From Mytilus trossulus (taxonomy: Eukaryota), in contig NC_086381.1 in NCBI RefSeq assembly GCF_036588685.1, positions 51,398,001 through 51,462,000 on the forward strand: a DNA stretch of 64,000 bases, written 5' to 3'. The notes below the pieces were generated by a model. It made no database searches and was not told the DNA's origin. It was given only the letters and a program-made list of their open reading frames with translations. How positions within the stretch are numbered: position 1 is the stretch's first letter; the number at the start of each line of letters is the position of its first letter. This document shows, one piece after another, positions 24,678 through 56,500 of this stretch. The position numbers and the translations under genes were made by a program.

Positions 24678-24958
24678 TAGATATAGGAAGATGTGGTGTG
24701 AGTGCCAATGAGACAACTCTCCATCCAAATAACAATTTTAAAAGTAAACCATTAAGGGTTAAAGTACGGTATTCAACACGGAGCTTTGGCTCACACCGAA
24801 CAACAAGCTATAAAGGGCCCCAAAATTACTAGTGTAAAACCATTCAAACGGGAAAACCAACGGTATAATCTATATAAACAAAACGAGAAACGATAAACAC
24901 GTATATATTACATAAACTGTACATCAGATTCCTGACTTAGGACAGGTACAAACATTGC
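24678..24958 (+). repeat. Interspersed repeat family C copy
   Basis: High similarity to 8648-9060. Confidence 0.75.
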
Positions 24959-27900
24959 ACTAGTCATTACAGTGATTTTTTTGATATTACATGATATGGT
25001 TTCGTATTGACTTGATATAGTTTTGTTATCACTTAATATAGATCTGTAATTACTCGATGTGGTTTTACCATGATTGAATGTGGTTATGTCATAAGGCAAT
25101 GTGGTTTTAACATTACTTGATGTGTATGTGACATACCGTAGTGTAGTTGTCTCATTATATGATGTGGTTAGTTATTTCGTTATGATGATTTGTCAATTAT
25201 TTATATAGCTATAAATAACGTAATGATGTTTTAAAATTTGACGATTTTACACTACATGATGTGCTTATTTCATCTTTTGATCTTGTCATGTCATACTTTG
25301 ATGTTGTTGTCCCATCGCAACTACGAGGTAAAACCACGTGCCCATTTTGGAAAAAAAATACGTTCTATTTTTAGACCGATATCTATGTATCGTTCGTGTA
25401 ATGCGCTTTGGATGATTTTCGATATCCATTAAGTTAAAGTTTGAATTATAGTTCAAGTTGTTGTTCATTGTTATTTGAAATGACAAAAGGGAACGACAGA
25501 CAAAATTTAGAAAAAGTGATAAAACATGAACGGTTATTCGGACATAAGGGGGATATCCCAAAACCACTTGTCGGTTTTTCCTAAGTTCTCAAAAGGAAGC
25601 AGTATTATATTATGATTCCAAGGAACACTGCTTTATCTTGGTCTTGAAGAATAACTCCTATACAAGTTTTATAACAATTCTTTGAGATTTACAAATTTAT
25701 CATGTCAAAATAGTTTAATTTGGATATATTCAATTAAAAAGCGACAAAGCGTCGATTATGTCTTGTTCCTGTTGTTAGCCATTCGATGAAATGAGTCGGT
25801 ATAATAGTTTTTAAATATATATTAACCAACAAACAATGTTAAACCTGTCTCCAGGTATAAAAGTACGTGTAAGAGCATGTGTTAGTTTTGTTTAAATAAC
25901 AAAAACAAAAAATAAATGAAATCGAGGAAACACTTCAGTAAACCCTATGATATTTGATGTATAGCCGCATGCACACAACTTATGTGCCAACTATGTGAAT
26001 TAAACATAAACTGTTCACATCTACATGATCTACATCGATGTAATCATAGTTGTGAAGGGCCATATGTGAAACCAGCGGAAATAGCTACTATAATTTGATG
26101 TACTTCCTTGTTTCACCGAAAACAATATTTGTAGAGATGAATGTAAGCCATTTTAGAAATGAAAAATATTTTTTCAAATGATGTTATTTACATGTTTTAT
26201 GTTAGCATTATTCTCATAAATGTGGAAATTATTAGCTCTAAAGGTAAGTGAGAATGAACCTGTTGTTGTCAAGCTACTAATATATTTGTGTTGTGCGAAC
26301 GGATACTTATACACTGTAAAAGAGAAGCAAAATATACCAGAGGGACAGTCCGTCAAACTCATAGATCGAAAATAAACTGACAACTCCATGGCTAAAAAGT
26401 AAAAGGACATACAGACATATAACAGTACACATGACACAACATAGGAAACTAAAGACTAAATCTCGAGTTATAAAAACTTGATTTAATTGAAAGTCCCTGT
26501 TTGTTTTACTCTAGAATAGTGCAACAAGGTTTGTTTATAAAGATATAAGTATTGAAGAGTGCACACACGTTGATGTATAGATGCTAAATATGTTTTCTAA
26601 TCAAGATATTTCAGAATAAAATTTAAAAAAGGAACATTCAGTTTTAGATTCAATTCTGATTCTGTCATTGCTTTTATTAATGAGGAAACAGTGACAGTTC
26701 TTCTGTTTTAATTAAGTTTAATATTCTTATATTGCACACATATAAACCAAACGAAATTTTTATATATTCACGCGTTGAATATAAAACACGGTTTTACAAT
26801 GCACGATTTTAACAACGAGAAATTCATTGATGATGTCAAAAGAAAATATTCAAATTTAACCGTACAACAACATTTAGAAAAAAAATATCAATGATTAGAA
26901 AAAAAAGTGACTTTAAAATACTGCATGTAGCTATATGTATATTTTTTTCAACGGTTTAAACATTTTATTTCTTTAAAATATCAAGGAAATGAGTTATATA
27001 CAACATATACCAGATAAGCCTAATACAGTTTTTTTTTCTAGGTGACTCACGTTTGAATCAACATGCATGATCAAGGAAGTGAATGTCTGTTTTCAAAATG
27101 AGTTACGATGAAAATAGTATATGTTATATATATTCAGGTCTGAAACATGAAAATCTATACATATGCTTAAATAAATTGTTCGTGAAGTTGCCAAAAAAAA
27201 ATCGTTTAAACGAATTACTTAAATAACATTAAGGAATTTATTTTATTAAGGAACACAAAACCTGATACTGAAAAAAAAAAACTTAAAGTATTGGAAGTTC
27301 GAAATATATGTAACATTAAGGTCTTGGATAGTGTATATAATGTAACATTTTTGAGCCTATAATCATTGGAGAAGACAACAAGAAATGTATCGATATTGAT
27401 TATTGAATATTTCCCAACTTATTCGGTAGCCAAGAGCTTGCAGCTAATTCCGATTTTTTGCTTAACGTCACCAGTGTCTGATAGAAAGTTGATGAACTAG
27501 GGAGTATGATAAAAGACGTCTCATACGAAAACACGTTCATGATCGTCGATTATTCTAAATAAATTTTTTTTCTAACCAACCCACAAATCGTATGCATATT
27601 TGTATGCTAATGTCAAGACCTTTTTGGTGCACCAAAAGGATAAAATTCTTGGGTCATACCACTCAGACCCCTTTTATAATAAATTCTTAACTATCTCAAA
27701 AATAGTTTGCATCAATATCGATTGCCTTGATAAGTTGTTTTTAGTTTATCATAGGTTTTGTTTTTATGAGACCTTTTAGAACCTTACGTCATATAAGTTC
27801 TTTAAATGTCTTGGTTATACTTTCTATTCAAGAAAATATGTGAGTAGTACAAGCCACGTCTGTTTAATGTCTTTTAAATATTAAATATATCAAAAACTGT

Positions 27901-28429
27901 TCTGACACCACCCCTTGTTGATAAATGTTTGGTATTTTTGTGTGCATCATCTTCACATTGAACCATAGGTTTTTCGTTGTCTTTTAATTTCAAATAAAAG
28001 TGTTCGTTGATGGGAAGAAACATTGCGTTACTATGCTCGATAAGAAATATTTCAAAAAAGATAAATGGTAACCTGCAATGCAAATGTTTATAGTATAGTG
28101 TAACACCATATGTCAAAGTAAATGTTTGTTTAAGTCTATACTTCAGAGGAAAAAATCATCAATTGTTAGACAAAATGTATATTGCTAGATAAAATGCACG
28201 CCAGGAAATGTAAATGTATGTATTTGGAGTTCATAGCAAATCATCAAGTTCTTCATAATTTTTTTTTATTTTGAATTGTTTTAGTTTGTACTGAAAATCA
28301 AATTAGATATTATGTAATAATTTCAATATTTACAAAAAAAAAAAAGACGTTGCTAGGCAACCTTTCCCTCACCCGAGTCAAATGGAATACGTGTAACAGA
28401 TCTTCATTACATATTTTTAATTGTACTAT

Positions 28430-29032
28430 GGTAGCAATACACACTTAGGAGTTTAGTTTCGCATTTTTGGCCCCTGTGGAATTTTCGAATAGGAAAGTTA
28501 TCGTGTAATATAATTCATTTTTAGACATATGAGTGCTAATTTAGCCTTCACAGATGGTTTATAAGAGCATCAAGATTACTTCTTACATGTTTTATGGGCT
28601 GTTTTCTGTTTGACGATCCGTCATAGCTAGACCGGCAATCGCTCCAGAAATCAATGTAATGTTTACTAACACTTTTTTTCTACACGAAGTTTTTAACGCA
28701 ACTTTACAAAAAAATGAAATGAAAGACATATGCTTATTACTTTAAGTCAAATTTGGAGAAATATTTGATATCTTCTGCCCCCCCCCCCCCCCCTTTTTGC
28801 AATATTTTATTACAAAAAATGCAGATTGTTGCCATGGATACACCCAAAAGAAAGGATATTTTACCATTTTATATACTGGATACAAAATTTATGGAAGATT
28901 TGATTACATACATTTGCATATGCCCATATATGACACAAACAGTAAGCTTGATATTGCAAGAAAGCAATGAAAAGGGGATGGTAATTTTATAAGGGCAACT
29001 TTTAATATTTTTCCTAACTGTTTATTGCTACC
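28430..29032. mobile_element. MITE with ~21-bp TIRs
   Basis: ggtagcaatacacacttagga ... tcctaactgtttattgctacc. Confidence 0.65.
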
Positions 29033-29577
29033 TAAGACTTTAATTTTGGTAAATTAAGCTTATCCGGAAAAGGGGTCATGAACGCCCCGTATCATACCTG
29101 GTCATAACTTGACAAATATTTTTAATGACGTTTGTTCGTCTGCAACACTATGAAATCCTAAACTAAACAAAGTATTATATGTTGATGATGCTATATTATT
29201 TCCTTCTATAAAATATAGATCGACATACTGCGTAGAAAAAAATCGTAGCATATTGTGCATTTAGATCAATTTGAAGAAGTTGAAGTTGAAATATTTATTG
29301 TCATAATCTGTTGATAGAAAATAAAAGTGTACTTAATATCTTTGTGTTGGGTTTAGCAGCAGGTACCTTTACAACTGCTCAAAATGATGTGCAATTATAA
29401 AACAAAACAATAGAAAATAAACATTTCTTAAACTTACAGAATGTTGGTATTATTATGCCAAATATTGGTACAATCTTCTTATACTATATCATGTGTACTT
29501 TTCATGACACTATAATAATAAAAACTTTGACACTTTTACTTCCATAACACTTGTACATGCACCTCACTTTATTTTAG

Positions 29578-29745
29578 GAGAGATACCCTCTGCATATGTC
29601 ACGGATATCTATTATTCATGGAAAGAGGCAAACGAAATATGTGAAATGATTAGATTATATGATAACATACAGTTCCCTGACACGTATGGCACATTAAGTT
29701 GGGTAGATGCGCCTGTAGAATATTCCCAATGGGTTGAATATAAAG
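29578..29745 (+). CDS. Receptor exon: N-half of CTL-like domain 1 (…YYSWKEANEICEM…LSWVDAPVEYSQWVEYK)
   Basis: ttttattttag acceptor, gtagga donor; 'SW.EA...C' CTL motif. Confidence 0.75.
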
Positions 29746-32700
29746 GTAGGAATACCTAAGATTAGTCTTATGACAGAGGTAAAAAAAAACAAGTTCTAAC
29801 CATTACATAGGTTGTATTAAATCAATTTCAACATATTGATAATTGCGTTTGATAATTGCGGTATACACATTTCAACAAATTGAATTATTTTAGAAAGTGC
29901 CATGGCAACAATTTTCAAAGTTTGTTTTTTTTAAATTCAGCAATATACCATCTCCAGTGTTTTTATATTTGATAGAGTATACATTGGTCTTTATTATGCA
30001 ATAAAGTTTTTTTCTGTCGATGCCTGCGTTCTTTTATAAATCTTGCCTAGAAAAAGGTAAATTTTCATTTTTTTTATGAAATCTAAAAATACCGATCTTT
30101 GGTATTTTGGATTTGCTAATACCAGAATATTATGGACTGCTGATTTTATTTTTTTATTTTAAAAGTCAAGTACTATGCTTGTTATTACAATATCAAAAGT
30201 AATTTTATTGCACAATTTGTACAGGTATGTGTACACAAGTCCAAAGTTATCCCAATTTCACCTAAAAAGCATTGAATTTGAAGCCAAAATTTTAGGTCAA
30301 TGGTTACCATAGCAACCATACACATGAAACAAGATTTTTTTTTTCTCAATATAATCATATTTGAAGCATATATGCCGAATTTGGTGGAAATCTGACACCT
30401 ATGGTTTCCCAGTTCCTATTGATTCCTTTGATGCTTACAGAGAATTGCTAACTTAAAAGTTTTAAAGGTGCATGCTGTATTTTTCCTATATATTGTACAT
30501 CAAGAGTTCATATTTTGCAAACTACAGAATGAATATTTACTAAATGAAAATGTCTTGAACCGAAGTTCAGCTAAATGCGGACAAATTACACAATAAATGA
30601 AAAATCAATAAACCGTATCTAAATTCTCATAGACAATAATTTATGTACCTCAATTATTTCAATTAAGAATACCATTTTTATTTGAGTTTTGTTTAACCGT
30701 CAATTCATTTCCGTGTGTGTTTGTTTACATCTAGTAGTACAAATGCTGCTTTCATCTCAACAAAACTATTTCCATTTTACTCTAGATTGTGTGAACGTGA
30801 AACCAGAGTTCATAGAAAAACATAAACGTGTTCAATATGGCGATCAGTTGGGGCAATGCTTGCAGTATTGTGAAGACTATGACTACATTGGATTACAGGT
30901 ACGTGCATCAGCTATTGAATTAAATAGAAAACAGTTTTGATAAAAGTGCCTATTAAACAACTCTCCATTGAAGTAACAATATGTTAAAATTAAACACAAA
31001 AAGGTCGAAGTAAGGCCTTCATCACGAAGTTCTGACTCATAGCGAACAACAAACTGTAAAGGTACACGCAATTGAATGCTTTAAATAATTCAATCAGGCA
31101 CACCTTCGGTTTCATTTATATATCAAAAACTAAAAACGAGAAACACCAACAAATGACAATCACTGATTTAAAGGTTTTTGAAATGGCGTAACTCATTCAC
31201 AAGATGTATTAACAAAAACGAGTAAAAAAGAGACGAAAGATACCAGATAGGCAGTTAAGCTCATAAATCGAAAATAAACTGACAACGCCATTAGCATGAT
31301 CAGTTGCAATTATAAAACGTAATACATTTTTAATTATTCATCACGCTGAACGAACATATTTGATCTATGACACACTGTTAACACAATATTTATAACAAAA
31401 CGAAGAAGAGGAGATTAAATATAATATCAGAAGCACAACTATAAAATTAGGAAAAAAATACTTTGAATAAATTAACATACACAGGTGAATACAATATACA
31501 TGGGAGACAAAAATATTCTTTTCAAAATCTTCAAATTATCAAAAAAACGAAATGTGTTTAAATAACAAACATTTCTTTTTATTTCAAACTGACATTATGG
31601 TACTTTTAATTCATCTTCACTTTCTACTTCATTTCAATTGGGTTCAACATGGTAAAACAGTAACTTCTCTTAGCCTTTTATTTTAGTGTTATAATGTTTC
31701 ATTAAGCCTCATTTGTATGTTTACGATCTTAGTATGCCAAATGTAGATGAAACTGAATTATTGCTTATGTTGTTCACACCTACCCTTTATAAATCAGGCG
31801 CATAATGTTAGATTTACAACTAGTTATTAGAAACGTTCTATGCATATCCTAAGTCAGGATCCTGTAATTCAGTGGTTGTCGTTTGTTTATGTGTTACATA
31901 ATTGATTTTCGTTATTTTTTTTCACATAAATTAGGCCGTTAGTTTTCTAGTTTGAATTGTTTTACATTGTCTTATCGGGGCCTTTAATAGCTGACTATGT
32001 CGTATGGGCTTTGCCCATTTGTTGAAGGTCGTACGGTGACCTATAGTTGTTAAAGTCTGTGTCATTTTAGTCTTTTGTGGATAGTTGTCTCATTCGCAAT
32101 CAAACTACATCTTCTTTTTTATATTTCATTATATTCTCTAACATGTCTTATCATTCATTTATTTTACATTCATTCAAGATATTCAGTTTTTGTTCTGCTG
32201 CAAATTCATTTATTAAAAGGGCACTAGCTGTCAAATTCATGTTCACCAACTTTAATCAACTTTTAATATTTTATTAATAACAATGTTCATTTATTCAAGC
32301 TAGTTAAGTCTAAAATAAATAATAAACAGAGCACGAGCACAACAATACGTAGCTTCATTTCGTGTGTATATTAGTCTATACATCATCTAATTAAGTAGCA
32401 AGTTGGCCTCTTAACGATGACCATATAAACATACATATATATCTATACAGATTAACATAATTAAGCAAACTCGTGCTGTTGGATTATTCAATGTCTAATT
32501 ATTTAATTTCGTATTATAGATGAAAAAAAAATGTTTATCAGCCTTTTTACTTGTATAAGAATGATGTTTTGTGGATCAAATCGGTCTATAAAAGGATAAA
32601 TTTCTATAAAATGGACGTGTTATTCATCTCTAACTAGGGGTTAAATTGAATTCTCATGAATACAGATTTAATGAGGTTGAATTATTCACTTGCAAGTGAA

Positions 32701-35700
32701 TAATTAATAATAAATGTTTTTAGCCTTTTTGACAAAATTGAACCATACTGGCTGCTAAAAGCTAATTATTATTGCACTATTTGTATTTCATTAGTAATTG
32801 AGCAAACAAATATTAATGTTTTTATACATCTCGTAGCAAGTGCCACTTAAAGCGCCTTTCATTATTTCAAATAAATTTAGTCGGATGTGTGTATCTGTTT
32901 GTATCTGCTGTTAATATACTTATTTCCGATTTAAGAGTGTGATTTTTTTTTAATATATAAACCATTTATCTTATCCTTTTCTTCGACTGAGATTTGATTA
33001 TTTTGACTTTTTTTTATTACTTTGTTCCGAGATATTGAAACTGATTGAAGAACTTTTTTCTTGAATACTTGCTATATAAATTATTGTTTTTTTTTATAAA
33101 ATGTTTACCAGCAATCCAATTGTTCCTGTTTGAGCCTTTCTGAAATGAGTCATAACACTGTCATATCAGGTTGTTCACATAAAGAAATATGCAGAGGAGA
33201 CAAGTACGCATACTGTGCAAATGGCATCAGTAATTTTAACTGTTTTATTATCTACAAAAAAGGTAAATGGTAGTACATACTTTAATATAGCGGATGCAGT
33301 GAATTTCAGATGAATCAATGATAGTAAGGAGAATTTTGTTGTTATTGCCCATGAGACAACTATTTCTGAACATTCAGATGAAATAAATATAAGCTATCAT
33401 AGGCAACCACACGGCCTTTAACAATGAGGACACTCATACATTGTTGACGTCTTTTTAAAAAAAGGTCCCAATAGGAAAAATATGAACATAAAAATGACAT
33501 AATTAACGACTTCATTTGTAACAAAAAACAAAAAAATTACAAAATAACAAATATAACAGACATGTACCAGCATCAAGCAATTCAACTATATACTTCGGAT
33601 TTTTGACAGGCAGATAACGAATATGGCATGGTAAAGCATGTTTAAAGGCGCCAATTTTATCTAAACTTAAGATTTCGATGTAACGGCACAACATAAGAAC
33701 AAACTATAAAATTCAGAAAAAAACATCGATAAAGTAGATACAGTGTTAAGCTTATCTGTTTCAATTATACATATTTCCTGGTATATTGTATGTCTAACGT
33801 GTTGAATATATACATAAATATATTAAACAAGTTGTATATACATTATGTACACAGCCATGTATCACCATCATTGATGGCGATCCGATGAATAAATCTGTTG
33901 TAGAGTTGTCACTGACTCAGACGTTCTAATAAATATAATTATTTTCTGTGACTGTATTTTACATTAATTTGTAAGATCCTTTACTATAGATAATTGAGCT
34001 GATCTGTAACAATAACATCTCCATGCCTTATATATCATGTACTGTAGTACGCCGCTAGATTAAAACTGACGGGGAAAGGTAACACACGGTCACTAAAAGC
34101 TTTATTTTTTGTAGAGCCCAGGTGGTCGTATGGTCTAGCGGGACGGCTGCAGTGCAGGCGATTTGGTGTCACTATATCTCAGTAGCATGGGTTCGAATCC
34201 CGGCGAAGGAAAAACGAAATATTTGCGAAAGCAAATGTACAGATCTAACAGTATTGGGTCGATGTTTAGACAAGGTGTTAGATATCATGTATTGGTTGGA
34301 TAATCTGTTACGTCCTATCGTGTGTAGTCGGAATAATTATAAAATTGCTTATCCATACAATCTCGTAAAATAATTATATAAAGTTCAAGACTGCATGCTA
34401 GTTACGTAAGCGCGTCACTGTTTTTGATATGCTGTAACGTTTGTTTGTAGTTGATGACTTATGTTCGTTGTTGTTCTGTGGTTTTCATTTTGTATTCCCT
34501 ATTTTACTTGTTTGCTATTGAGTTTCGAAAATGACACAGTTTTTAGTTTAAATAGCTATTTACAACACAAACTTTACAGATATGTTTCAAATAAAAATAG
34601 CAAAGTGCGATATGCACCATCCTAAAATTCCAAAAGAGACGACAGTTAGGTAACAACAACCTTTACGTGTAAATACATTCACAAGAAACAACACAGACCG
34701 ATCTAACCTGGTAAAACATTTCAAATTTGACAACGGTAGAGTAACTACAACAGAGGCGGAGTAATTAAATATCCCAAATATATAGCATTTTAATAATTAT
34801 CATAAATAAAAAATTGACAATGATACAAACGCTGAATGTGACTTCGTTCTTGTTTGTACTCAAATGAATAAAACCCTGCGATAAAAACTCGTACAATTCA
34901 TAACATTTAGAGTTGGCAATGGTAATGGAATAGCAACAAGAGATTATCTGTGCAGTAATATGTAATGTTTACTTATCAAATTAAAAAGAAGCACTGCGCG
35001 AATCATATCTATACAACTTTTCAAATGCATTTATCTTATTTGCTGGCAACGTTTTTAATTTTCTTATCTAAAATATTTGTGAATGAGACTTTCCTCCGTA
35101 TATCAAACAGTGTTGTGTCTTTGATTGTAATTTTCATTCGATTGCGCTCTGCCTAAAAAATTGTCTTTATTAATATGTTCAGTGGACTTTTCTTTTGTTT
35201 CCTTTTCGCCCAACAATGTTCTGTGACACACAGGGTTTGATAATTCTAGAATTTTCACATGTTCCCGTTTTAGTTATGTCATTATGATTTCCATTTTACA
35301 GACCTGTGTGATGTGTTTTGCTTCAATAATTATTTGTTCCTGAAAGGAGTTTGTATTGTAAAACTATTTTATATTATGTTTTAGTAATATTTGTATGCAA
35401 AACAATAAGTGTTATGATGATTTTCAGAAATATTATTGGGAAAAACAACACAATTCATGATATTCAGATAATACAAACAGTGAAAACGATCATGCAGAAA
35501 TAAAAATGACTAGTAATTTCAGGTAACTTTTGGCTGTGTTTTTGTAATTGAGTGTCGTCCTTCTTGAACAGTTATGATGTGTCCAAGATAAACGGCATCC
35601 ATAAATTGAATGTACGAATCATCTTAGGTTATGAAAATTTTCCTAGGAATTTGTCAGACATTTTTGTTGATAAAAATAGTTTCAAAACACATCATTTTAC

Positions 35701-38700
35701 TGAACAATCTTCGTTTTCGGAAAACACTGATTTATGTAGAATAAAAGCAAAATCATAATATATGAACGTCGATTATATCTATCATTATTATTATGTTATT
35801 ATACAGTGAATATCAACGAGCAATTACACATCGGAAATTGTTTAAAAGTTACAAGGGCTCACGACCAAAATAGTTCTTTTAGAGCAAGCCCGTGTAATGG
35901 AGTCTCCAAACCGTTGTGTACAAGTAAGAACTTATTTATGAAACTGTGTCTGTTTTGTTTAATCAACTAATATGAGTTTGCGTATTGTTTTGTTTCTTGC
36001 CCCTATAGCTCCTCAAAAATGCGTCCTCTGATTATATAGTTTCATTCCACGTTACATAACTTTATAAATTTCAATGGTCAATTTAAATGAATTTTCAATG
36101 AGTAATGCGATTTCAAGATACTGTTCTGGTGGGTTATATGAATCAACTGACCAGCTAGTGTACGCAGTTTATATATATAGAATATATAAATAAAAATGTG
36201 AAAATGTGGTATGAGACATCTCACCTTTTAAGTCACTATGCATAAAAAGTAATCAATTAAAGATTAAACTACAGCCTTCAACCGGAACGTTGGAAAACCG
36301 GCAACCACTGACCAACTGGCTCCTGACTTCGAAAGGTGCATACAATTACAGCGATTTGAATTGTTTAACAGGCACGTACACTAACCTTACTATGAGAAAG
36401 AAGTTTATCACTTCAACATAAACATTTTATATTAAGGATATAGTTTTGTTAGGTTAAGGATTTTTTCAGATGTTCGAAATCTGTTGGTTTTTACTTACGA
36501 TACAGGTTACACAATGTGCCCCATATCATCCATCCTTTTTTCATGAAAGACTAGGAGAGTTCAACATGGGTCGTTTCTAAAATATTAGCACATTCTAGAT
36601 TTTATTTGAGACCCAAATAAGGCCTGCGCTTAATATAAGTTAAAAGTCTAAGTAACTCTTTTCTCGCCCTTTCTTTAAATTACAATATCTTGAAATGAAT
36701 TGTCATTAACCCTTAATACTCTAAGCTTACTGTGTTCTTTTACTACGGCTCTTCTGATTAACAATATCAATTTCAAATTTTCTTAAAAATTGTTTTAAAT
36801 TTCACCTAACTACAACCCTTAACATTGCTGTAAAACGAAAACTTGTTTTTGTTTTAGGCTGCATTTTTGAGTTTGTTTATTAAATCATTGTCATCTTTTT
36901 TAATACATGAATCAGGCATGCGCAGTTTCTACGGACATTCGCAAAATTGGATAAGCTCTTTCAGCCAATGTAAACCAGAACTCTTTGTTTCATATGATCG
37001 TTACAAACAGTCACAACTATGGCAAGAAGGACTATTTTGGTTAGCTAATATAAGGAGACCATATATTAACCATTTCCTGGTATGTTTAATAAGCCAAGCC
37101 GTCTGTTTGATATGATTTTGTGTATCTATTTTTTACATTTTCTGTATTTTAATTTAGATTTTAAACAACACTAATTTCTAATCGTTATTTATAAATTAAT
37201 CAAGGTTGTAACAACTAAAGTAAAGTTGACCTTTTATATGTTCATTATAGCTTGGCTTATGTATGTATCCAAAAATACAAAGTAGTAAATAATTTATATT
37301 ATACCTTTGCAAATACATTAAATATCAGATGAATCAATCGGTCATACATAAAATTTGTATTAAGGTTTCACTGATGAGTCTTATGTAGACGAAACTAAAT
37401 AATAATCCTGGTACCTTTGATAACTATATTCGCAGGATTTAAAACTGGGTTCAATACATCATTTTCTACATAAAACAAAATTTCTTGATATTTGACAACT
37501 GTTATAGGAAAAACGTAGTATGTAACGTGTAGTGTGATATCTTCACTATACCCTATTAACTACTTATAACTAATTTGGTAACTTGATGTACAGTAGTTCG
37601 TCTTTTGGGATTTCTTCTGACTCCCTTTTTACATCGATTTACCACTTCGAAAATGTTTACCGACAATTGCGCATCGTTGAAATATTCTGGATGTACCTTC
37701 ATCAGGAACGATTAAAACCAAATATTTGAATACCACAGACTTATAAGAACCGAAACTATTGAAGAACTATTTGACAAACATTAACCTTATAGTCACATTA
37801 TCGGGTTAAGGAAAATAGACTTCATGCAATTATTGTTTTATGTTCTATAATCATGATAATGGCATACTTTTTATTTTGACGATATTTTCATGAAAAATGT
37901 CTCTTTAAAGAAGGAGAAATTATTGATACGGAAATTTTATGTCCAAAACAGTTGCTTTCTTTTGAAGTGTTAGTTAAAAAAAAAGCATTACAAATCATGT
38001 TAATGAAATCTGAATGATACAAAAAAAAAGATATCACTTTGATCAAACAATTGTCAAATGACTGTTGAATTATTTAGTTAGCAACATCTAATAATATACT
38101 ATATAAAGTTTATACATTGCAGTTGGGTTAGAATGTTACTGGTGAAATTTATGGCGAAGCGCGTATTGCCTTCTTAGTAAAATACGATAAATAAGAGTAG
38201 AAATAAAATACCCGGTCAAAATATACATCAACCAAAACAAACATACATGCATATTATACATCAAGTACTTAATTTACAGAATTTGAACCTAAATACTGTA
38301 TGGCTGTGACCACACGAACATGTGATCATCGGGTATATACATATGTCAGGCAATGCACAGAAAAACTACCAGTCTTATGTGCTGTCACAAATAAGACGTC
38401 GCCGGAAAATATACCATCTACTTATTCGGTTGAGATTCCTGAACTGGACTTCATTGTTAACACGACCAAAAGTACGTTTGTATTTAATGTTTCTTTTAAT
38501 AGTCTTAAAGTGAGAATGAGTCAAAGAGACAACAGCACAATCAAATGTCAGAACACAACTGCATTTTTCATGTACCTATTAAATGCTTACGTGTTTTTAC
38601 CGAATCTTTTTTGCTAAATTTTGGGAAAAAAATTATTAAAAGAAATGTAGTATATTTGTTGATTAAGGGAAATCTACTCACACTTTTAGGTTGTATCGTT

Positions 38701-41700
38701 ATGATTTTATCTGAAATTATTTGAGTTAAACGTACAATATTCCTTCCAATTCTAGCCTTTTTATTGTAAACATGGTAAAGGCTAGAGTTTACTTTTTGTA
38801 TGTACTAATATAAAGTTGGCTTTTTTTTTCTTTTTGACCCGCCTTATTTAGTTTATTTGTATAAGTATTCTGTGTTGTATGAATGTATGCATGTATGCTA
38901 ACTCAAGTCGTTTGTTCCATAACAGATACTGTACCAGCGTCCGATATTACAACATTTACAATTTCGGTTGAAGTTCCTGAACTGGATTCTAATGTAAAAG
39001 CGAGTAATAGTAAGTTACTCATTTGATGTTCCGTTATATAGCCGTGTATGATTTATCAATTGCATGTTACTTGTGTACGGCATATGTTGTACATTCTCTC
39101 TGTTCCTCGATTTCCAATTTTACATATACATCAGTTCATCCTCTATTGACTCTTAAAATTCAAGAGTTAATCTAAAAATGAGGGTACTTTCTCTAAAAGT
39201 GAGGGTGCTTTTTATATGGCCTTCCAAATACCGTTTCGATCCCTAACATCACTGAAGAGACATTTATTGTCAAAATCCGGATATGGCCATGGTGTACTAA
39301 AGAAATATTGACACCGAATGTTTGTGGCACAAAATCCTGTCCACAAGTTAACAATTTTTTTTTTTCTGTGACGTATTAAATTTATATTTGGATCCATTTT
39401 GTTACATCTTGTGATCAATTTTATTTGGCAATCGCCAATGGCAGTCAGCAGGGTTAAAGAACATCAGTTGTTCGACCTGTTAGTCAAATGCGTTTTGTTT
39501 AAAAATACTTTTTCACTTCTTTGGTCTTTTTGGAAAATGTTGTTTGTGCTGTTTTTAGACCCTTCTACAACGACATTTGTGTTACATGCACACGTATAAA
39601 AGTTGCGGTTTTTATCCAACGCAATCATCGGTTTGACCGTAGTTTTCAATTTAGACTCGTATATATATCCATATATATATGTAGCTCGTCTAAACATCAA
39701 CCCAACAATGTTAGATCTGTTAATATGCTTTCGCAAATTTTTCGTTCTTCCCTCGCCGGGATTCGAACCCATGCTACTGTGATATCGTGACAGCAAATCG
39801 CCTGTTCTGACATTATTCATCATCTAAATAACGTATTAATTTTCTTTGTTTTTCTTTGTATTTTTAGATTCATTTTTAAGTCATTTATGAGCATTATTTT
39901 GTCTGGTCTGTGCGTCCGTTACCTCGTTCGTTCGTCCGTTCGTCCGTCTGTCCCGCTCATGGTAAAGTGTTCAGGTTAATGTTTTTGGTTGAGTTAGTTT
40001 TTGATGAAGTTGAAGTCCAATCAACTTGAAACTTAGTACACATGTCCACTTCGATATGATCTTACGTATTCATTTGCCGAAAAAGAGATTTAACCCCATT
40101 TTAACGGTCCACTGAATATAGAAAAATAACAGTCTTGATGGGCATCTGTGTACTATGGACATATTCTTGTTGTTTTTAATGCAGTTTGTCACTTAAAAAT
40201 TACTTCTTGTTTCACATTTGTCTTTTTGTTTTACTTATATACCTTATTTACCTTGTTTTCATGCCATTCAGTTTCAACAGTTATTTATGATTAAGATTTT
40301 ATAATAATGTTGACTGATGTACCAACAATTTGACGTTTTTTACTCATTATGTTTAATTACTCACTTATGGTTGTCAACATAATAGAATAAGTGAGATTTT
40401 AGATGTTTAGCTAGCTATAAAATAAGGTTTAATCCCAATTTTCTACATAGGAAAATGTCTGGTTATGACCTGTGGTTTCCATTCGTTAGAAATGTTTGAG
40501 CTTTTGATTTGTCATTTAATAAAGGACTTTACGTTTTGAATTTCCCTGGGAGTTCGTTAGTTTTGTTTTTTTAACGGTTGTTCATATACATTTCAGATAT
40601 TCTACTGATAACACTGGTTATAACAGCCGTACAAGCTGTTGTGGTTTTTATTGTAGTGATCGTTGTATGCATAAGGTATGGTTTCCTGCTAAAATTATTA
40701 TCGAATGGATAGGACTGGAAGTATATTTTCTTATTTAAAACTGATGTCGCAGTTAAAAACAAATTGGAGTAAAAAATGTAATGAGATATTATCGATAGTT
40801 TTTCTAGCAATTGAAACATATAAATACCAAACTTATTATTATCCTTTTGAAGTTGTAAATGTATACCTCAAGTATATAAAAACAAAAAGACAGAATTGCA
40901 TCACCTAATTATAACCATTTTTTACAAATATGTTTCTTTTTTTTTTCAAATCTATTGTCCAATTTTGTAATAACTTGCATAAGCGAGAAGCTATTATATG
41001 ATATTGCCTTGAGTATATTTGGCAAAACTTTAAGGAATGTCTTGTCCTAACTGCTCTTCAAATTCGTACTTTATTAGGCCTTTTCAACATTTTGTCATTC
41101 TAGAGTCACTGATGGGTCTTTTGTAGACGAAACGCGCGTCTAGATCAAATATACAATTCAAATACAGGTACCTATGATGCGTTTCACCAAAAAGGATTGA
41201 TAAGAAAAGCCAAATGAATATTCAACCATATTTGCATGACTGAGTAGAAACATAAGTTTCTTGATCATTTCTGTATTGATCAACGACGTATTTTAGCAAA
41301 TTATGTTAACAGTACCTTAGCAAGGGTTTTTGAGCTAAAAATTCAGTCGGAGAACATAATGGGGTTAATTGATGGTTACATATATTGATATTTGGAGATC
41401 TTGTACTGTTGACTGTTCATTCTGTTACAGTTTAAGTCTATCTTTTATTGTTACATTATTGATAAATTCATAAATAAGCTAAAATGCAACTCCTTGATGT
41501 TTTCGTTTGATAGTCCCAATCCCTAATCTCGGATTATCAATCTGTTATCTCGAATTAAGACAATATACCTTGAATATATTTAATACTCCGTTATATTAGA
41601 ATTTTATTACATTTTTTTATATTGAGGAATAGTTATATTTTAGGTTACGTGATCAAGAGTTTTGAAGACGAAGTCTATTCTTCCAAAACATTCCGTTTAA

Positions 41701-42503
41701 TAACTTGCAATCTAAGAGTTCTTGCATGGAAACCATGTGTAAACTGACGAACGACAACATACTCAAGCTCATGCATTGTTCAGGTTCTATTTATATTTTT
41801 GTCCTATTGAAAATCAGGCATGTGGTCATACAACATTCGAACATTTTTATTGTACTCAGACTCATGAATTAACCAATAAAATTACTGATTTGTTGTTTTG
41901 GGCACATATTTGGTACTAAGATAACTACTAGAGCTTTATTTTACGACCGAGAGTAACGTCTGCATCTGGTTTGTCAAGATCACAAAGTTTGAGCATCATT
42001 ACAGATATAATACGTATTAAAATGTTAAACTGGTGCAGTAAACTTGAAAACACTGATGTTATTTTAGAAAATGCATTTAATTATATTGATATTTCAATCC
42101 GTGAACTTTCACTTTATCACTTATCTTTTTTTTTTGTTTGTTCAGACGTCGGAACTCATCAATAACTCGACATCAACAAACTCCTGTTCCAACCAATGAA
42201 GTTACATACGCTCAGGTCAACAAGCCTACAAAAGAGAAAACACCTGACCATGCTGGCGAACAGACTAGAAAAAACCCAGTCGACGATGCCTATGATCATA
42301 TGGAACATCATCGACTCAGTCAGTATCAGATTCCAACTGAGAGCAATTATGATACCATGCAGTCTGGTGGAAATGAAGAATTGGAAAATGACTATGACGT
42401 CACAAGTGGAACAGACAGACCAAGACAAATTGTCGTTGATGATAGTTCAGAATATAGTCATGTACAGGTAGAACATCATGAAATAAAAGATCCATCGGCT
42501 TAA
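29578..42503 (+). CDS. Single-pass type I membrane receptor (CTL-like/WSC ectodomain, Tyr-motif tail); exons 29578-29745, 30786-30898, 33112-33262, 35807-35923, 36916-37079, 38280-38471, 38926-39009, 40597-40675, 42146-42503; start/signal exon not resolved
   Basis: GT-AG exons encoding SWKEANEIC, a WSC Cys pattern (YKDC...CLQYCEDYDYIGLQ...CSC...C...C.GD...YC), CTL-like C...C...C closures, a ~25-aa hydrophobic TM followed by RRR, and a tail with VTYAQV/SEYSHV. One phase mismatch at 37079/38280. Confidence 0.75.
30786..30898 (+). CDS. Receptor exon: WSC domain N-half (DCVNVK…GQCLQYCEDYDYIGLQ)
   Basis: WSC consensus C..C...Y.Y.GLQ; ctag/gtacgt junctions. Confidence 0.85.
32217..32846. mobile_element. 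MITE flanked by TTAA (Kolobok-like), with internal 26-bp perfect palindrome
   Basis: ttaa|aagggcactagct ... agcaagtgccac|ttaa; aattattcacttgcaagtgaataatt at 32679-32704. Confidence 0.55.
33112..33262 (+). CDS. Receptor exon: WSC domain C-half (QSNCSCLS…GCSHKEICRGDKYAYCANG…IIYKK)
   Basis: CxC...C...C.GD....C pattern of WSC; cag/gtaaat junctions. Confidence 0.85.
34116..34275 (+). mobile_element. tRNA-derived SINE
   Basis: A-box tggtcgtatggt, B-box ggttcgaatccc, no acceptor-stem pairing; 5'-truncated inverted copy at 39683-39804. Confidence 0.75.
35807..35923 (+). CDS. Receptor exon: C-half of CTL-like domain 1 (…IGNCLKVTR…FRASPCNGVSKPLCT)
   Basis: CTL-type C..(x)n..PC.....LC; phase 1-1. Confidence 0.75.
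36916..37079 (+). CDS. Receptor exon: N-half of CTL-like domain 2 (…SQNWISSFSQCK…GLFWLANIRRPYINHFL)
   Basis: 'NW..S...C' and 'FW' CTL-like motifs; atcag/gtatgt junctions. Confidence 0.65.
37368..37426 (+). mobile_element. Hammerhead-bearing repeat fragment (stem III/I 3' arm deleted)
   Basis: tcactgatgagtcttatgtagacgaaac...aatcctggtacctttgataacta. Confidence 0.7.
38280..38471 (+). CDS. Receptor exon: C-half of CTL-like domain 2 plus stalk (…YCMAVTT…RQCTEKLPVLCAV…YSVEIPELDFIVNTTK)
   Basis: C.A....C...LP.LC motif; tttacag/gtacgt junctions. Confidence 0.75.
38926..39009 (+). CDS. Receptor stalk exon (NTVPASDITTFTISVEVPELDSNVKASN)
   Basis: Phase 1-1, gtaagt donor; partial duplicate of the 3' end of the previous exon. 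Confidence 0.7.
39245..39295 (+). mobile_element. Hammerhead-bearing repeat fragment, CUGAAGA subfamily (GAAA->AAAA)
   Basis: catcactgaagagacatttattgtcaaaatccggat; palindromic stem III atccggat. Confidence 0.6.
39683..39804 (-). mobile_element. tRNA-derived SINE, 5'-truncated copy
   Basis: gccgggattcgaacccatgctactgtgatat...aaatcgcctg is the reverse complement of 34155-34270. Confidence 0.75.
39870..40172 (+). mobile_element. pearl/HINE-like non-autonomous element with (GTCC/GTTC)n microsatellite
   Basis: cgttcgttcgtccgttcgtccgtctgtcc followed by a core repeat; inverted homolog at 54038-54505. Confidence 0.6.
40597..40675 (+). CDS. Receptor transmembrane exon (NILLITLVITAVQAVVVFIVVIVVCIR)
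   Basis: ~25 hydrophobic residues; tttcag/gtatgg junctions; phase 1->2. Confidence 0.85.
41005..41180 (+). mobile_element. Hammerhead-bearing repeat, decayed (CUGAUGG, broken stem I)
   Basis: gtcactgatgggtcttttgtagacgaaacgcgcgtc...ggtacctatgat. Confidence 0.7.
42146..42503 (+). CDS. Receptor cytoplasmic tail exon with ITIM/YxxM motifs
   Basis: Long polypyrimidine acceptor; RRRNSS...EVTYAQVNK...DAYDHM...SNYDTM...NDYDVT...SEYSHV...*. Confidence 0.88.
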
Positions 42504-50563: not shown

Positions 50564-53500
50564 CTATAACAGTCAGAAAATCTTGCAGTTATATATTTAT
50601 ACGTATCTTCAAACATCAATCGGGGTTATCGTTTTTTCAACATTCACCAAATCTGTTCATTTTGTGATAACTGTAATCATTATCACGTTGAGAAAACGTT
50701 CATGTGATTTGCTAAGGTTTTTATATAATATGGAGATATGGAGGTGCATGTTTTATTAAATCTATTGCAGAAATGTGTTTAAACACCTGTAAGCAAGATA
50801 AGACATTCTTCAATAGAAGTTATTAATGATTAAAACAGCCTCATACTAGCAAAACTGTTATAGTATATCAATTACAATTCGCCTCAGTTTAAACTATACG
50901 TGTTTAATTATTCTAGCATCATATATCTGGTTATGTAAATAATTATTGACGAAATGTTTAATCTTCGATGTATTTAGGATAACGTATAATTCAAAAAGAA
51001 TAATGTGCTTATCGATTTGTTTATTTTAAAATGTGTAAATTAATTCGACCAAAGATGAATTCATTGCTTACAAGAATTGTTATTTTAATGAATAATTAGA
51101 TAGATTATTGCCAAAATTTGAGAACTGAACATTTAACATTCATTGTGTCTAGGTTATACTGTACAGTGGATGTTGGTGTATCCTGTTGTTGCCATTATAT
51201 TCGTAAATACGTTTGTCCTTAACTCAATTTTACTTTAAATTACCTGTTGTTGTTTTCTTATAACATGGACAACATGGACATTTTTTAGTATACCATAAGA
51301 AACTGAAAATTCTAAATGGAAAATTGAGTGGTGACGGTATTCTATCTTCAAAATCAATTATAACTGAATGTCGATAGTAACGCCATTTCTGTTCGGATTT
51401 TTTTCGAATTTCCTTAAACCGTGCACTGCAACAGAAACATAAATTTGTACATACAACGCTATATCAAGGAATAACAAAATTTACTAGAAATCTGAAGTCA
51501 AATGTCTATCAGATTTGTAAAATCGCCTAAACTTTATATATACTAGTGAACAAAAGAAACTATACAAGACAGTGTATTTTCTATATATAATGAAATGGAT
51601 ACCCTGTGCCAAGGTAACTAATTGTCCAATTGGTCTAAATTTTACAAAGAGTTGTTTTCTTATCAAACTGATAGATTTAAGCTAAAGATACGATCTTTTT
51701 GTTGTTGGATTTTTTTGTTGTTGTAGGGATAACGTATATACATGTTGTATAACTGTTATTAGGAAAATATTTTAGTTTCATATCTTTCAAGTGAATTATA
51801 AGTCCAATGTGATGGGTGTACAAACATTTTATTGATATGTATTACCTGTATTTTTACAGTCTATATATATATATAGTACACAATGTTACTATAATAAACA
51901 AATTCGTATTTGTATTCTTATTCTTAGATCAAAAATATATTGTTTTACTAGAAAATCCAAAAAATGGTATTAGAATTTAAAGATTTGAATGCGCTTGCAG
52001 AGAACACCTGATTTTCATCTTCAAAATCAAATGCCGACTTTTTTTATCATTTTATACAAAATACACTTGTTCCCTGTGTTCAAATAACTCAGTGTTCTCT
52101 AACTTTCCAATTTGGTCAGATTATTTTGGTCGTATGCCCTTGCTTTGTAAATAAATGTGTTTTTTTTATATTTTTACAGCTTATTTTCAGGAGTTTAAAC
52201 TTGTGTATAGCTTTTTTGATTGACTAGTATACTTCATAAATATTTAATATCAATGGCATATTACCTATATATATTCTTTGAAAATTAACTGTCTCTCTGT
52301 CATACCAATACATGGATATATTTTGTAACTTTGACAGAAATACACATTTTAAATTGTTATTTCCCGAGAGTGTCTAAATTGTCTAAATTGTCTGAACATC
52401 GATTTTACAGTTACATAATTCTGAACTATTACGGAAGTTTCATTGTTTTTAGGATTATTTCAAGCGTTATTTATGCGCACAGTTTGGTTGAATTATATAG
52501 ACACTATACCTTTATTATATGTATATAAATAGTAGCAAGAGTAGAAATTGCTCTGTCAAATAAGGCCCAATAATTTAAAAAGCGTGTCTAAGTTTGTTAC
52601 TAAAAAAAATCATTTATTCAAATTCTAAATAAAGGGTATTTCAATTGGTCATAAGCTTACTAGGAAAGAAGTAAAATCAGCAGTCCCTCCTTAATACTCC
52701 TCTTATTTCTGTATATTTTAACTATCAAATCTAAAATAAGTTTACGCACAAATATGTCACTATTTCCACTAGTAAATAATACAATATTAGTTTATATTGC
52801 ATTTCTAAACATAAGTTACGATTTCAATTTCTACAATTAAAGACACAAATTGTTTGAATAACTGTCCTCATGAACAAACAATTAGATCGACATCTTGTTA
52901 ACGATTTATACAATTTGACTTTGGCATTCATACCACATCTTCGTATCTATTTATACTATGAATACTGTTTAATTAATACATTGAATAAACACATGTATGA
53001 CATACCTGAACATTGCAATAACAATATTTAATAACAACCAGTTTGTCAACATCATATAAATCGCAGCAATTACTGGTGTTATCCAATCTCCCGTTGCACA
53101 ATTTGCGTTATCCTTGCAATCCGAATTATCATTTCCTTCAAATAAACAGATTGAAAGAATATATCATGGAAACTATAAAGGACATGGTGAACACATGAAA
53201 AAAGAAAGTAAGATTTGAATTATTGTCCAGCGTGACAATCTTCCGAAGAAACAGATTCTATAGTTAGACAATATACGTATAGTGTCTTGAAATATGAAAT
53301 GTATTTGTATGAGGCTTAGAAACGGGAAAATGCGAGGTTCTACCGAGCATTTTCCCGTTTCGTGCCGAATACAAATAAAATTCATCTTTCAAAACACTAT
53401 ACGTATATTGTTTTTATACTGAAATCGAAAAAAAATAATGAAAAATGAAAAAAATATGTAACAAAAATTGTTAAAAATGTGTTTTGAATTTCCCTCTTGG

Positions 53501-56500
53501 GGTACCATTTTAGGGAATTTCCCTATGAACGTAGTCCAGGCGGTAAGACATTGACATATTAAGGAATTAGAAAGGGAAAATGAACTTAATTAATAACATT
53601 TGATAAACATGGTATATAAATAACCAATGTGAAGACATAAAAGTTTAAATTCATAAAAGTTTGATCATTGTTACTTTACGTTGTCATGGTCGTGATGTGA
53701 CGTTGTTGATGAAATACAGTAGTTCCGGTAAGGAGGCGGGGCTATTAGGTTTGTTGAGGTCATTGACGTATAGAGGTAACGTTTATACGTATAGCTTTAT
53801 CTGTATAGTAAAATAGCTGATTGCAGTATAAATCTTTTATTATATTATGGTTAGCCCTTTATAAACAGTTTACAATGCTATTCAATAAAAAGTATGAATT
53901 GTTTGTTTGCGAATGGTTCACGAATATATGCCCATAGAGATTCACGATATTATAAGGACTTCTCAACGCAAGTTTAAAGACATTTCGTTTATTGTTTGAC
54001 AATAAATTATATAGCTATATTCTGCCAACTCTTGTACAAACAAGAATGTGTCCAACGTACACGGATGTCCTTTCGCATGCCTACTCGCATACTCATTTTC
54101 CATGGTCAATGGACCATAAAACTGGGTAAAAATATAATTTGGCATTAACAGTAGAAAAATCATACAAAGGGGAATATGTGTACTACGTTTGAAGTTGTTT
54201 GGACTTTTAACTACCTTAACCAAAAACGTAAACCTGAAACTTGCACTTTCATTTTCTATGTCCAGTGGATCATGAAATTTTGGTCAAAAATCTTATTTGG
54301 CTATAAAATTATAAAGATCAGATTATAAGGAATATGTGTACCAATTGCAAGTTTCCAGTTGATTGGACTTCAGCTTCATTAAAAACTACTTTTACCAGAA
54401 ACTATAACCTGAAGCGAGACGAACGGACAGACGAACAAGCAGACGGACAATCGCACAGAATAAACAAATAATGCCCCTCTACTATCGTAGGATGGGCTGA
54501 AAAATATGGAACGCCACAGCTGCCTTGTGATGACAAGAATCATATAATTAAGGGTAAAGACATATCATGTAGCAAATGTTATATACTATAATAATATTTG
54601 ACTATAATACTCTGTCAATTTGCAACATTCCCTACAGATAAATATTACTAAGATAAATGTATATACTATAAAGACACTTTGAAACAACATTGAGTTAAAT
54701 TTCAAACTATTTTTTCACTTTGGTATATTATTACGACACATTTGTATACTATACAGTCATCTGAATATAGCATGGAACAATTGTGTCACACTATCATGTC
54801 TTATAAGTATCGTATTTAGACATGTTTTGATATAAAGCTAACAATTCTTTTATCACAACGTTTCATCTATATAACAGTAGACTATTTGTTTACACTATCA
54901 GACCATTTAACTATACCATTATACCATTTCATCATCCCAAAAGACAAATTTTTAAATAACGGCGAAAATCATCTGAAACATTGATTATTATAATGAGAAA
55001 AGATCCTTAAGGAAATAATTTTGCGGACCTTAGGGAATCGCTTTCAAGATGAATGAATTTATCAATTTTTATGTTGCATTTGCCCTCAGTGATACAGAGT
55101 TGAAAAGACTTTGTGTCGACACGAAAGGCGACACATGTAATGATAATATAATACGTTCGTTATTTCAAGAGGGATAGGCTCAAGTCAGGGATACCTTTAC
55201 CCTTATGCCTCGTTCACACGCACATTTAGTAAATGGCAATCGAATTCGAATTACGTGTGAACGCAGTGTGTAGGTCAACAAATTACTTAAAACCTTTACT
55301 ATATCTTCCATAGATATAAATATTTGGTTTTAAAGTTTGAGGTTAACTGTGCACAACTTATTTCAAACGGGAATGCACATCTTCATTTTTACGGACATGT
55401 TATTTACCATGCCCGGAAATTAAGTAACAATTCTAGTTAATTTATCGATTTTTCAAGTAAACTTTTCTAAAAGGTTTAAAATTCAATTCTGTTATTAGAT
55501 CACAGATTATTGTTTTTAATGGTTTTAATAATGATTTTGTTATTATTTAATGAAAAGGAAACTTAATACTTATACACATTCAGGGATCTACAATCTGTCG
55601 ATACCAGTATATTGGCATTGCATAGTGTCATGGTAGAGTCATTTATCTATCTATCAGTAACTACAAGTACTTTTTTGTTGTTGTGATGTACAAGCTAAGT
55701 ACCCGGCCACGTCAACAGAAGATCTGCTATGATTGCCAATGAGACAAATCGCCACAGGAGACCAAAATAACACAGAAATTATTAACTATAGGTCACCGTA
55801 AGGCCTTCAACAATGAGAAAAGTCTATACCGCATAGTCAACTTTAATAAACAAAAAAAAGACCCAGAAATGTCAATGTAAAACGGTTCAAACGAAAAAGA
55901 TAAAAGCCTTAATTATTTATGTACAAAAAATCAATTGAAAAAATATGTAATACATAAACAAACGAAATGCACTGAATTACAGACTCCTGTCTTGAACAGG
56001 TATATATATATATATATATACAGCATGTGGCGGGGTAGTAAATGTAAGGGGGGTCCCAATCCGTCCCAGACCTTGAACAGAGGTATAACATTACAATATT
56101 AGAACGAACTATACAAGTCAGTCGAAAAAGGCTTAACTCATCAGATGGACAAAATACAAGTGAACGTTGCCGGTTACTTGTACATCCCAATAAAAAAAAA
56201 TTCTATGTACATAACTGACTTAACTGACAGCTAGTACAAAGAAACTTACTACTAATGAAAAATTCATGCATCTAAGAGTAAGATTTTCGCATACTTATTC
56301 ACATACAAATTAGCAGAAACTATGTCATATCCATACGTCCTTTAATCTAGTATAATGATGATTTTTACACCAATGTCATGCATTTTAATTAAACATCTGC
56401 GGTCTTGATTTTGTTTCAGCTTTAAGTTGATAATAATATTTAATAATATATCTAAATTATCATGGGTACGGGATATATGGTTAGAGTTAAGGGTAGCACA

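Follow-up and report, generated by a model that had tools for sequence, protein, structure and literature searches.

A mussel receptor gene with a conserved tyrosine tail

A 64,000-nucleotide stretch of Mytilus trossulus DNA (assembly GCF_036588685.1, contig NC_086381.1, positions 51,398,001 to 51,462,000; the whole stretch is called the window below) holds a gene for a type I receptor that joins WSC and C-type-lectin-like (CTL-like) domains to a membrane anchor and a cytoplasmic tail with five conserved tyrosines. On balance, we consider it probable that this tail is a phosphotyrosine docking strip whose first site recruits Csk or SHP2 to dampen signalling. Within this animal DNA, which is rich in AT and in introns, tblastn with homologs and a splice check placed ten exons of the receptor gene on the + strand from 26159 to 42503. 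The encoded domains follow the order signal peptide, CTL-like lobe 1 with a WSC insert, lobe 2, stalk, transmembrane (TM) helix and tail.

Exon 9 (40597-40675) encodes a TM helix of 25 residues, all uncharged, with a mean hydropathy of 3.2, and the coding part of exon 10 (42146-42503) encodes the entire cytoplasmic tail and the stop codon. Both exons are bounded by AG/GT, and their phase 2 junction reads CIR-RRNS. The same join is found in the NCBI model LOC134683990 (uncharacterized, Mytilus trossulus), whose protein is identical to our tail query. In a 1032-nt contig of sequencing run X2, exon 7 matched at letters 97-289 and the tail exon at letters 451-1026; the 161 letters between them equal exons 8 and 9 (163) minus two shared bases, indicating that this contig joins exon 7 to the tail exon. 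That run X2 is RNA is our guess, and none of the listed sequencing runs is recorded as RNA. The TM helix carries a Gln at a position occupied by Leu in close homologs; one position further, the M. coruscus ortholog carries an Asp. A first-pass annotation of this DNA had proposed a TM segment followed by a disordered-looking tail of about 118 residues between 40597 and 42503. These limits coincide with the start of the TM exon and the stop codon, and the proposal was confirmed by the exon structure and by a predicted local distance difference test (pLDDT) score <50 for the tail region in the model of homolog P0006.

The tail comprises 118 amino acids on one open exon, with a net charge of -10 and a mean hydropathy of -1.47, and all five motifs that had been named in it are present on the + strand. 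VTYAQV (42201-42218), a predicted Csk/SHP docking site, fits the consensus of the immunoreceptor tyrosine-based inhibitory motif (ITIM) and is followed by a conserved N-K. DAYDHM (42285-42302, Tyr codon 42291) has YDH, not YxxM, as its conserved core, SNYDTM (42342-42359, Tyr codon 42348) contains a conserved YxxM, and in NDYDVT (42387-42404, Tyr codon 42393) the Tyr is conserved in a variable context. In SEYSHV (42447-42464) the Tyr and Val+3 are conserved, the ITIM -2 position is not. A sixth Tyr, in YQIP, had gone unmentioned and is not conserved. With the ITIM consensus [I/L/V/S]xYxx[I/V/L] (PMC9546547) there are two matches in the tail; a motif scan of the tail detected no strict activation motif (ITAM), switch motif (ITSM) or YxN. 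Among 100,000 tail shuffles, at least two ITIM matches occurred in 0.84%, at least two YxxM in 0.20%, and both together in none. Acidic residues before the tyrosines had been taken as a sign of Src-type sites; an acidic context was present at 5/6 Tyr, which is not above chance (P=0.18).

Conservation of the tail tyrosines

As the ITIM consensus is loose in an AT-rich genome, conservation is the decisive test. The close-family set consisted of 39 tails, 14 of them at <70% identity (13 besides the window's own). The loss of the tyrosines in homologs had been named as the result that would speak against a signalling tail. Instead, five tyrosines were kept in 10-13 of the 13 non-redundant homologs, compared to a mean identity of 33% in the other columns and 0/13 for the sixth Tyr. 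When homologs were re-chosen by the ectodomain alone (14 proteins, 8 non-redundant), the tyrosines were kept in 6-8 of 8 (P=0.002). The best conserved site was YDTM (Tyr in 39/39 tails, YxxM in 35/39). The VTYAQV site matched the ITIM consensus in 30/39 tails (9/14 non-redundant), with Asn at +4 in 30/39 and Lys at +5 in 31/39. The Tyr of the YDHM and YDVT sites was present in 34/39 tails each, and YxxM was retained at the former in 24/39 (5/14 non-redundant). Thus, of the two YxxM motifs claimed earlier both exist and YDTM is firmly kept, whereas YDHM is not. Against paralog g2, dN/dS was 0.13 for the motif codons and 0.52 for the remaining tail, on few changes.

We also analyzed 38 proteins that had an ectodomain score >=30 bits plus a tail, 25 of which were distant homologs; those named come from scallops, a clam and a gastropod. 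In the 25 distant proteins YDH was counted 19 times, against a shuffle mean of 0.6, and Yxx-hydrophobic 86 times, against 28.3; loose ITIM matches numbered 18 versus 5.7 in shuffles, and strict ITIM matches 5 versus 2.6. Since YDH and Yxx-hydrophobic are enriched but the strict ITIM is sparse, the family-wide trait appears to be an array of docking tyrosines, with the ITIM-like first site found mainly in Mytilus.

The ectodomain is lectin-like but not a classical calcium lectin

The ectodomain is spread over eight + strand exons. Exon 1 (26159-26243) holds the start codon and a signal-peptide-like segment, and equals the N-terminus of NCBI LOC134684735. Lobe 1 is divided between exon 2 (29578-29745, N-half; a contig of run X5 spans 29576-29743) and exon 5 (35807-35923, C-half), and between them lie the two halves of the WSC domain in exon 3 (30786-30898; Pfam WSC is above its cut-off in paralog P0017) and exon 4 (33112-33262). 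The N-half of lobe 2 is in exon 6 (36916-37079, ending in phase 0 at a frame break, see below), its C-half with the beginning of the Ser/Thr stalk in exon 7 (38280-38471), and a stalk repeat in exon 8 (38926-39009).

An AlphaFold2 model of homolog P0006, made with 48 sequences, had pLDDT >90 for most of residues 31-310; the fold rests on this homolog, as a single-sequence fold of the window's own 5' protein reached pLDDT 31. Residues 73-176 of P0006 matched the WSC domain of Wsc1 (7pz2; Z 10.6-10.8, rmsd 3.5-3.8, 94-96 residues aligned) and also Kremen. Matches to C-type lectin-like domains (CTLDs) had Z 7.4-9.3, with LLT1 the best (Z 9.3, rmsd 3.9, 89 aligned) and E-selectin at Z 9.0. The CTLD Cys/Trp pattern was conserved in the 48-row homolog alignment, in agreement with the earlier view of a lectin-like receptor. 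Because every CTLD match runs from about residue 30 to about residue 310, the two lobes seem to be intertwined: in the model (P0006 residues 29-318), the N-half (or first strand) of lobe 1 possibly pairs with the C-half of lobe 2, around the WSC domain. Exon order and motifs suggest that the WSC domain sits at the place of the sugar-binding loop.

Domain databases barely detect this architecture. No Pfam domain, Lectin_C and WSC included, matched P0001 or P0105 (the window gene) above its cut-off, and Lectin_C was above cut-off in 3/46 homologs; WSC (PF01822) reached 33.6 bits in paralog P0017 and 46.5 bits in P0108 (cut-off 27.8). Foldseek gave no match at E<=0.001, the best being a WSC domain at 3.1e-3. 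ESM Atlas features of at most 0.81 offer a lead only, and one 60-member molluscan cluster was similar in structure (TM-score 0.61). A profile search yielded 95 cluster representatives, the named ones from Mytilus, scallops, a clam, an oyster and a gastropod. Positive selection on the ectodomain was not shown by comparison with g2 (dN/dS 0.46).

Tail exons are exchanged among paralogs

Nine paralogs (g1-g9) lie at G000 C9:48.049-48.323 Mb, 3.1 Mb away from the window. Between the window gene and g2, identity is 44-45% for the ectodomain (dS 1.04) but 81% for the tail (dS 0.24), which makes the tail exon much younger than the other exons. In an approximately unbiased (AU) test with 10 genes the tails rejected the ectodomain tree (p=1.8e-5), and the reverse was also rejected (p=2.5e-88). 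NCBI splits g2 (G000 C9:48061921-48093835) into LOC134684693 and LOC134684695, with its exons apparently in phase. The receptor family is under-annotated.

Two pairs of adjacent paralogs in the cluster, g3/g4 and g6/g7, are ectodomain sisters (bootstrap 100; 58% and 61% identical), while other paralog pairs have ectodomain identities of 26-46% and g4 is 65% identical to P0034 of M. edulis. The window gene has no such adjoining paralog inside the window. In each pair one member (g4, g7) has a VxYAQV tail and the other (g3, g6) a second class of tail, which we call YEN, so that this class twice adjoins an ITIM-type sister. The YEN tail of g3 and g6 has lost VxYAxV and the second and fourth Tyr, and has gained YEN, YQSL-x10-YDTM or YDIL, and YEDI or YQEM. 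All 8 YEN tails formed one clade (SH-aLRT support 99) inside a group with the window's tail (93) in a quick tree of 27 of the 42 rows (15 near-duplicates, fragments and outliers were dropped). In the ectodomain tree (10 genes and 14 of 24 database proteins, 10 being too short), five members with YEN tails fell into three strongly supported clades; four changes would be needed, and the five were united in 0/200 bootstrap trees. These trees argue that the YEN class arose once from the tail lineage of the window gene and is now carried by three ectodomain lineages. All exons of g3 are in phase, and the same join is present in the M. edulis RefSeq protein P0109.

We therefore regard the family as a candidate for, not a member of, the paired receptors. 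It is a tentative idea that mussels have a paired-receptor system built on WSC/double-CTLD ectodomains, in which the tail exon serves as a swappable cassette, an activating YEN version (with YEN, the ITAM-like YQSL-x10-YxxL/M and YEDI/YQEI) derived from the inhibitory lineage of the window gene's tail is found on three ectodomain lineages, and the members of a pair see the same ligands. A number of observations speak against it. Gene g6 (G000 C9:48235456-48247449) is missing all of exon 5 and half of exon 4, namely the first half, and is probably a damaged copy, and the N-terminus of P0012 is a chimeric draft model. The ITAM-type pattern Yxx[L/I]x6-12Yxx[L/I] (spacing from PMC13358205) occurred in g6, P0012 and P0110, that is in 3/8 YEN tails; g3, P0109, P0034 and P0061 have Met at the second site and P0058 has Phe at the first. 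The 10-residue spacer misses the x6-9 definition of PMC9546547 in 8/8. The mussel sisters are also far less similar than vertebrate pairs. Moreover, 5 of the 6 database YEN tails examined hold a loose ITIM match elsewhere.

Predicted signalling partners

The first-pass annotation had suggested signalling through SHP, Csk and PI3K, and SH2 exons with best PDB matches to Csk, SHP2, p85 and Syk are indeed encoded in the genome. YxxM is the docking rule of p85, and Grb2 prefers YxN. In the mechanism that we propose, a glycan or surface protein would cluster the receptor via the WSC or lectin-like lobes and a Src-family kinase would phosphorylate the five tyrosines. VTYAQVNK would then bind Csk or SHP2, YDTM would bind p85, and YDH and YSHV would bind other SH2 adaptors, while relatives with YEN/YQSL tails might give the opposite output via Grb2- and Syk-type binders. 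We infer the Src phosphorylation, Csk or SHP2 at the first site and p85 at YDTM from the likeness of the first site to LAIR1 (see below), from known Csk motifs and from the SH2 exons. Among the precedents, Csk binds YSSV in Cbp/PAG as well as EPIYA motifs (PMC3492796, PMC3561454), and YEEI/V is a Src SH2 site (PMC3492796).

Two Csk-like SH2 exons (L047:1501-1719 and L049) are located 1.1 kb apart on the same strand at G000 C4:57229827-57231158 and could be either tandem SH2 domains or alternative exons of mussel Csk. An expanded SH2 family is represented by a tandem array of seven or more similar SH2 exons at G000 C11:33.98-34.43 Mb (L058, L062-L064).

Alternative explanations

Several results count against an inhibitory docking tail. 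The ITIM consensus is common by chance, as 44% of 6086 translated 118-residue genomic windows hold one match and 12% hold two. SEYSHV keeps its Tyr in 35/39 tails, with the ITIM consensus in just 10/39 (3/14 non-redundant) and Ala as the commonest -2 residue. Thus, of the two ITIMs that had been proposed both fit the consensus and only VTYAQV keeps it across homologs; a second ITIM for tandem SH2 engagement of SHP fails the conservation test, with Tyr and Val+3 retained. The YDHM site is frequently YDHT or YDHI in homologs. The homolog profile included the tail, which somewhat inflates conservation; the distant and ectodomain-only sets lessen this inflation and do not remove it. With YxxM and ITIM-like sites on one tail, the net output is not necessarily inhibitory, and both the phosphorylation of the window's tail and its docking of SH2 domains are predicted from sequence. 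The EPN or QPD triplet, which marks the calcium and sugar site of calcium-dependent C-type lectins, is absent from 10/10 paralogs, and any such triplet occurs in 3/48 homologs. The domains are thus lectin-like rather than those of a classical calcium lectin, which makes the earlier suggestion of pattern recognition unlikely by the classical lectin route. Finally, a frame break means that the window copy may be dead.

This break is the basis of the strongest alternative, namely that the family is real but the window copy is a recent pseudogene or null allele whose tail never reaches a membrane. We regard this as a serious possibility, though not the favored one. Exon 6 ends in phase 0 whereas exon 7 requires phase 1, so that the reading is one base out of frame; splicing of the assembly as written meets a stop at residue 275. 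In this junction we detected no alternative donor, acceptor or convincing micro-exon that would restore the frame. As the shift lies upstream of the TM exon, the gene as written would give a short secreted form or nothing. The same exon ends in phase 1 in 9/9 paralogs, NCBI splits the window gene into two separately annotated halves, and the Gln in the TM helix replaces the Leu of close homologs. On the other hand, the ten exons all have open reading frames and canonical splice sites, spliced 3' exons are present in public contigs, the M. coruscus ortholog P0005 (72% ectodomain identity) reads through the junction, and g2 is also split by NCBI despite exons that look in phase. A contig match of run X5 ends at 37074, the position of the missing base, which weakly suggests that the allele in this run is intact; a second haplotype of the window gene was looked for and not found. 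The window copy may therefore be a null allele or an assembly error, and orthologs suggest that an intact allele exists. For the family, a null copy is compatible with the docking tail. The reading of the first-pass annotation as a receptor gene was right; it had overlooked this break and the second, opposite-looking class of tails.

Alternatively, the tail could be a general scaffold for adhesion, migration or growth (Src, Csk, p85 and Nck-type adaptors) that acts in gill, mantle or other epithelia and plays no part as an immune checkpoint. The mixed motif set, with YDTM and its invariant Tyr as the best conserved site, would suit such a scaffold, as would the resemblance of the WSC domain and Ser/Thr stalk to the yeast mechanosensor Wsc1, which together with Kremen gave the best folds. 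Csk loss in invertebrates has growth and cytoskeletal effects (PMC3492796). However, 10 tandem-expanded copies (26-61% ectodomain identity), tail exchange and a damaged copy form the birth-and-death pattern of immune receptor clusters (PMC12582321). We find a pure scaffold unlikely. It is most improbable that the motifs, instead of docking SH2 domains, are Yxx-hydrophobic sorting signals (AP-2 type) of a lectin for endocytosis or scavenging: a hydrophobic +3 residue occurs at 4/5 conserved Tyr and Yxx-hydrophobic is threefold enriched in distant homologs, but conservation includes, at site 1, Val-2 and Asn+4/Lys+5 and, at site 2, Asp+1/His+2, five spaced sites are more than uptake requires, and the YEN and YEDI/YQEI sites gained by the derived tail are of the SH2 type. 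The phosphotyrosine docking strip thus remains our preferred account of the tail.

Other features of the window

The receptor gene is flanked by exons of two similar, convergent TRPM-like channel genes at 2337-15032 (+) and 51233-61783 (-), with Ion_trans and weak TRPM2 matches. High-copy dispersed repeats with very deep contig cover occur in or near introns at 24500-25133, 31474-32107 and 39716-40349.

Comparison with known systems

Because ITIM-type receptors are already known in invertebrates, finding such motifs is by itself of modest interest. The novelty lies in a receptor family that extends across molluscs, is barely seen by domain databases and follows a conserved tyrosine grammar, and in a Mytilus cluster whose tails have been exchanged between ectodomains. 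By its motifs, the family would work in the manner of ITIM receptors; it does not belong to the classical calcium lectins. Should the outputs of the two tail classes prove opposite, the family would be a lectin-like paired-receptor system in a protostome, and g3/g4 would be named genes for testing how mussels balance tolerance and attack on microbes or foreign cells. The members carry the automatic UniRef labels 'WSC domain-containing' or 'C-type lectin domain-containing protein'. The bivalve combination of WSC and CTL is covered by one sentence in PMC10140915, in whose main text the words ITIM, ITAM and tyrosine are absent. In literature whose coverage largely excludes subscription bivalve-immunology journals and supplements, we found no study of the mussel family or of Mytilus paired receptors.

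The first site closely resembles human LAIR1, also a type I receptor, whose N-terminal ITIM EVTYAQL binds the Csk SH2 domain and which also engages SHP1/2 (PMC12191340); EVTYAQV of the window differs by one residue. In contrast to the Ig ectodomain and two ITIMs of LAIR1, the mussel protein has a WSC/CTLD ectodomain and five conserved Tyr with one firm ITIM-like site and a YxxM. The resemblance is convergent, not homologous. Within bivalves, (haemocyte) receptors of oysters provide precedents for both outputs: CgNCAM1 signals from ITIMs to SHIP2 (PMC11841013) and CgCLec-HTM from a half-ITAM (hemITAM) to Syk (reviewed in PMC12842671). These have Ig/FN3 or single carbohydrate-recognition-domain ectodomains and are single genes, not a clustered tail-exchanging family.

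Other invertebrates also have clusters of type I receptors whose tails contain an ITIM, ITAM or hemITAM, namely FcoR in Botryllus (PMC12582321) and Alr in Hydractinia (PMC9546547), and in FcoR, too, the ectodomain and tail trees conflict (PMC12582321). Both belong to the Ig superfamily and are linked to allorecognition loci, whereas the mussel family is lectin-like. Among vertebrates, Siglec-5/14 (PMC13358205) and CEACAM1/3 (PMC5112662) are likewise encoded by linked genes; their ectodomains are related and their tail motifs opposed. Their binding domains are near-identical and maintained by gene conversion, while identity between the mussel sisters is 58-65% and the part that has moved is the tail exon. 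Compared to vertebrate pairs, the mussel receptors have no charged TM residue for an adaptor; in CEACAM3 (PMC5112662) an ITAM-like motif is part of the receptor's own tail, and the same would hold for the YEN class.

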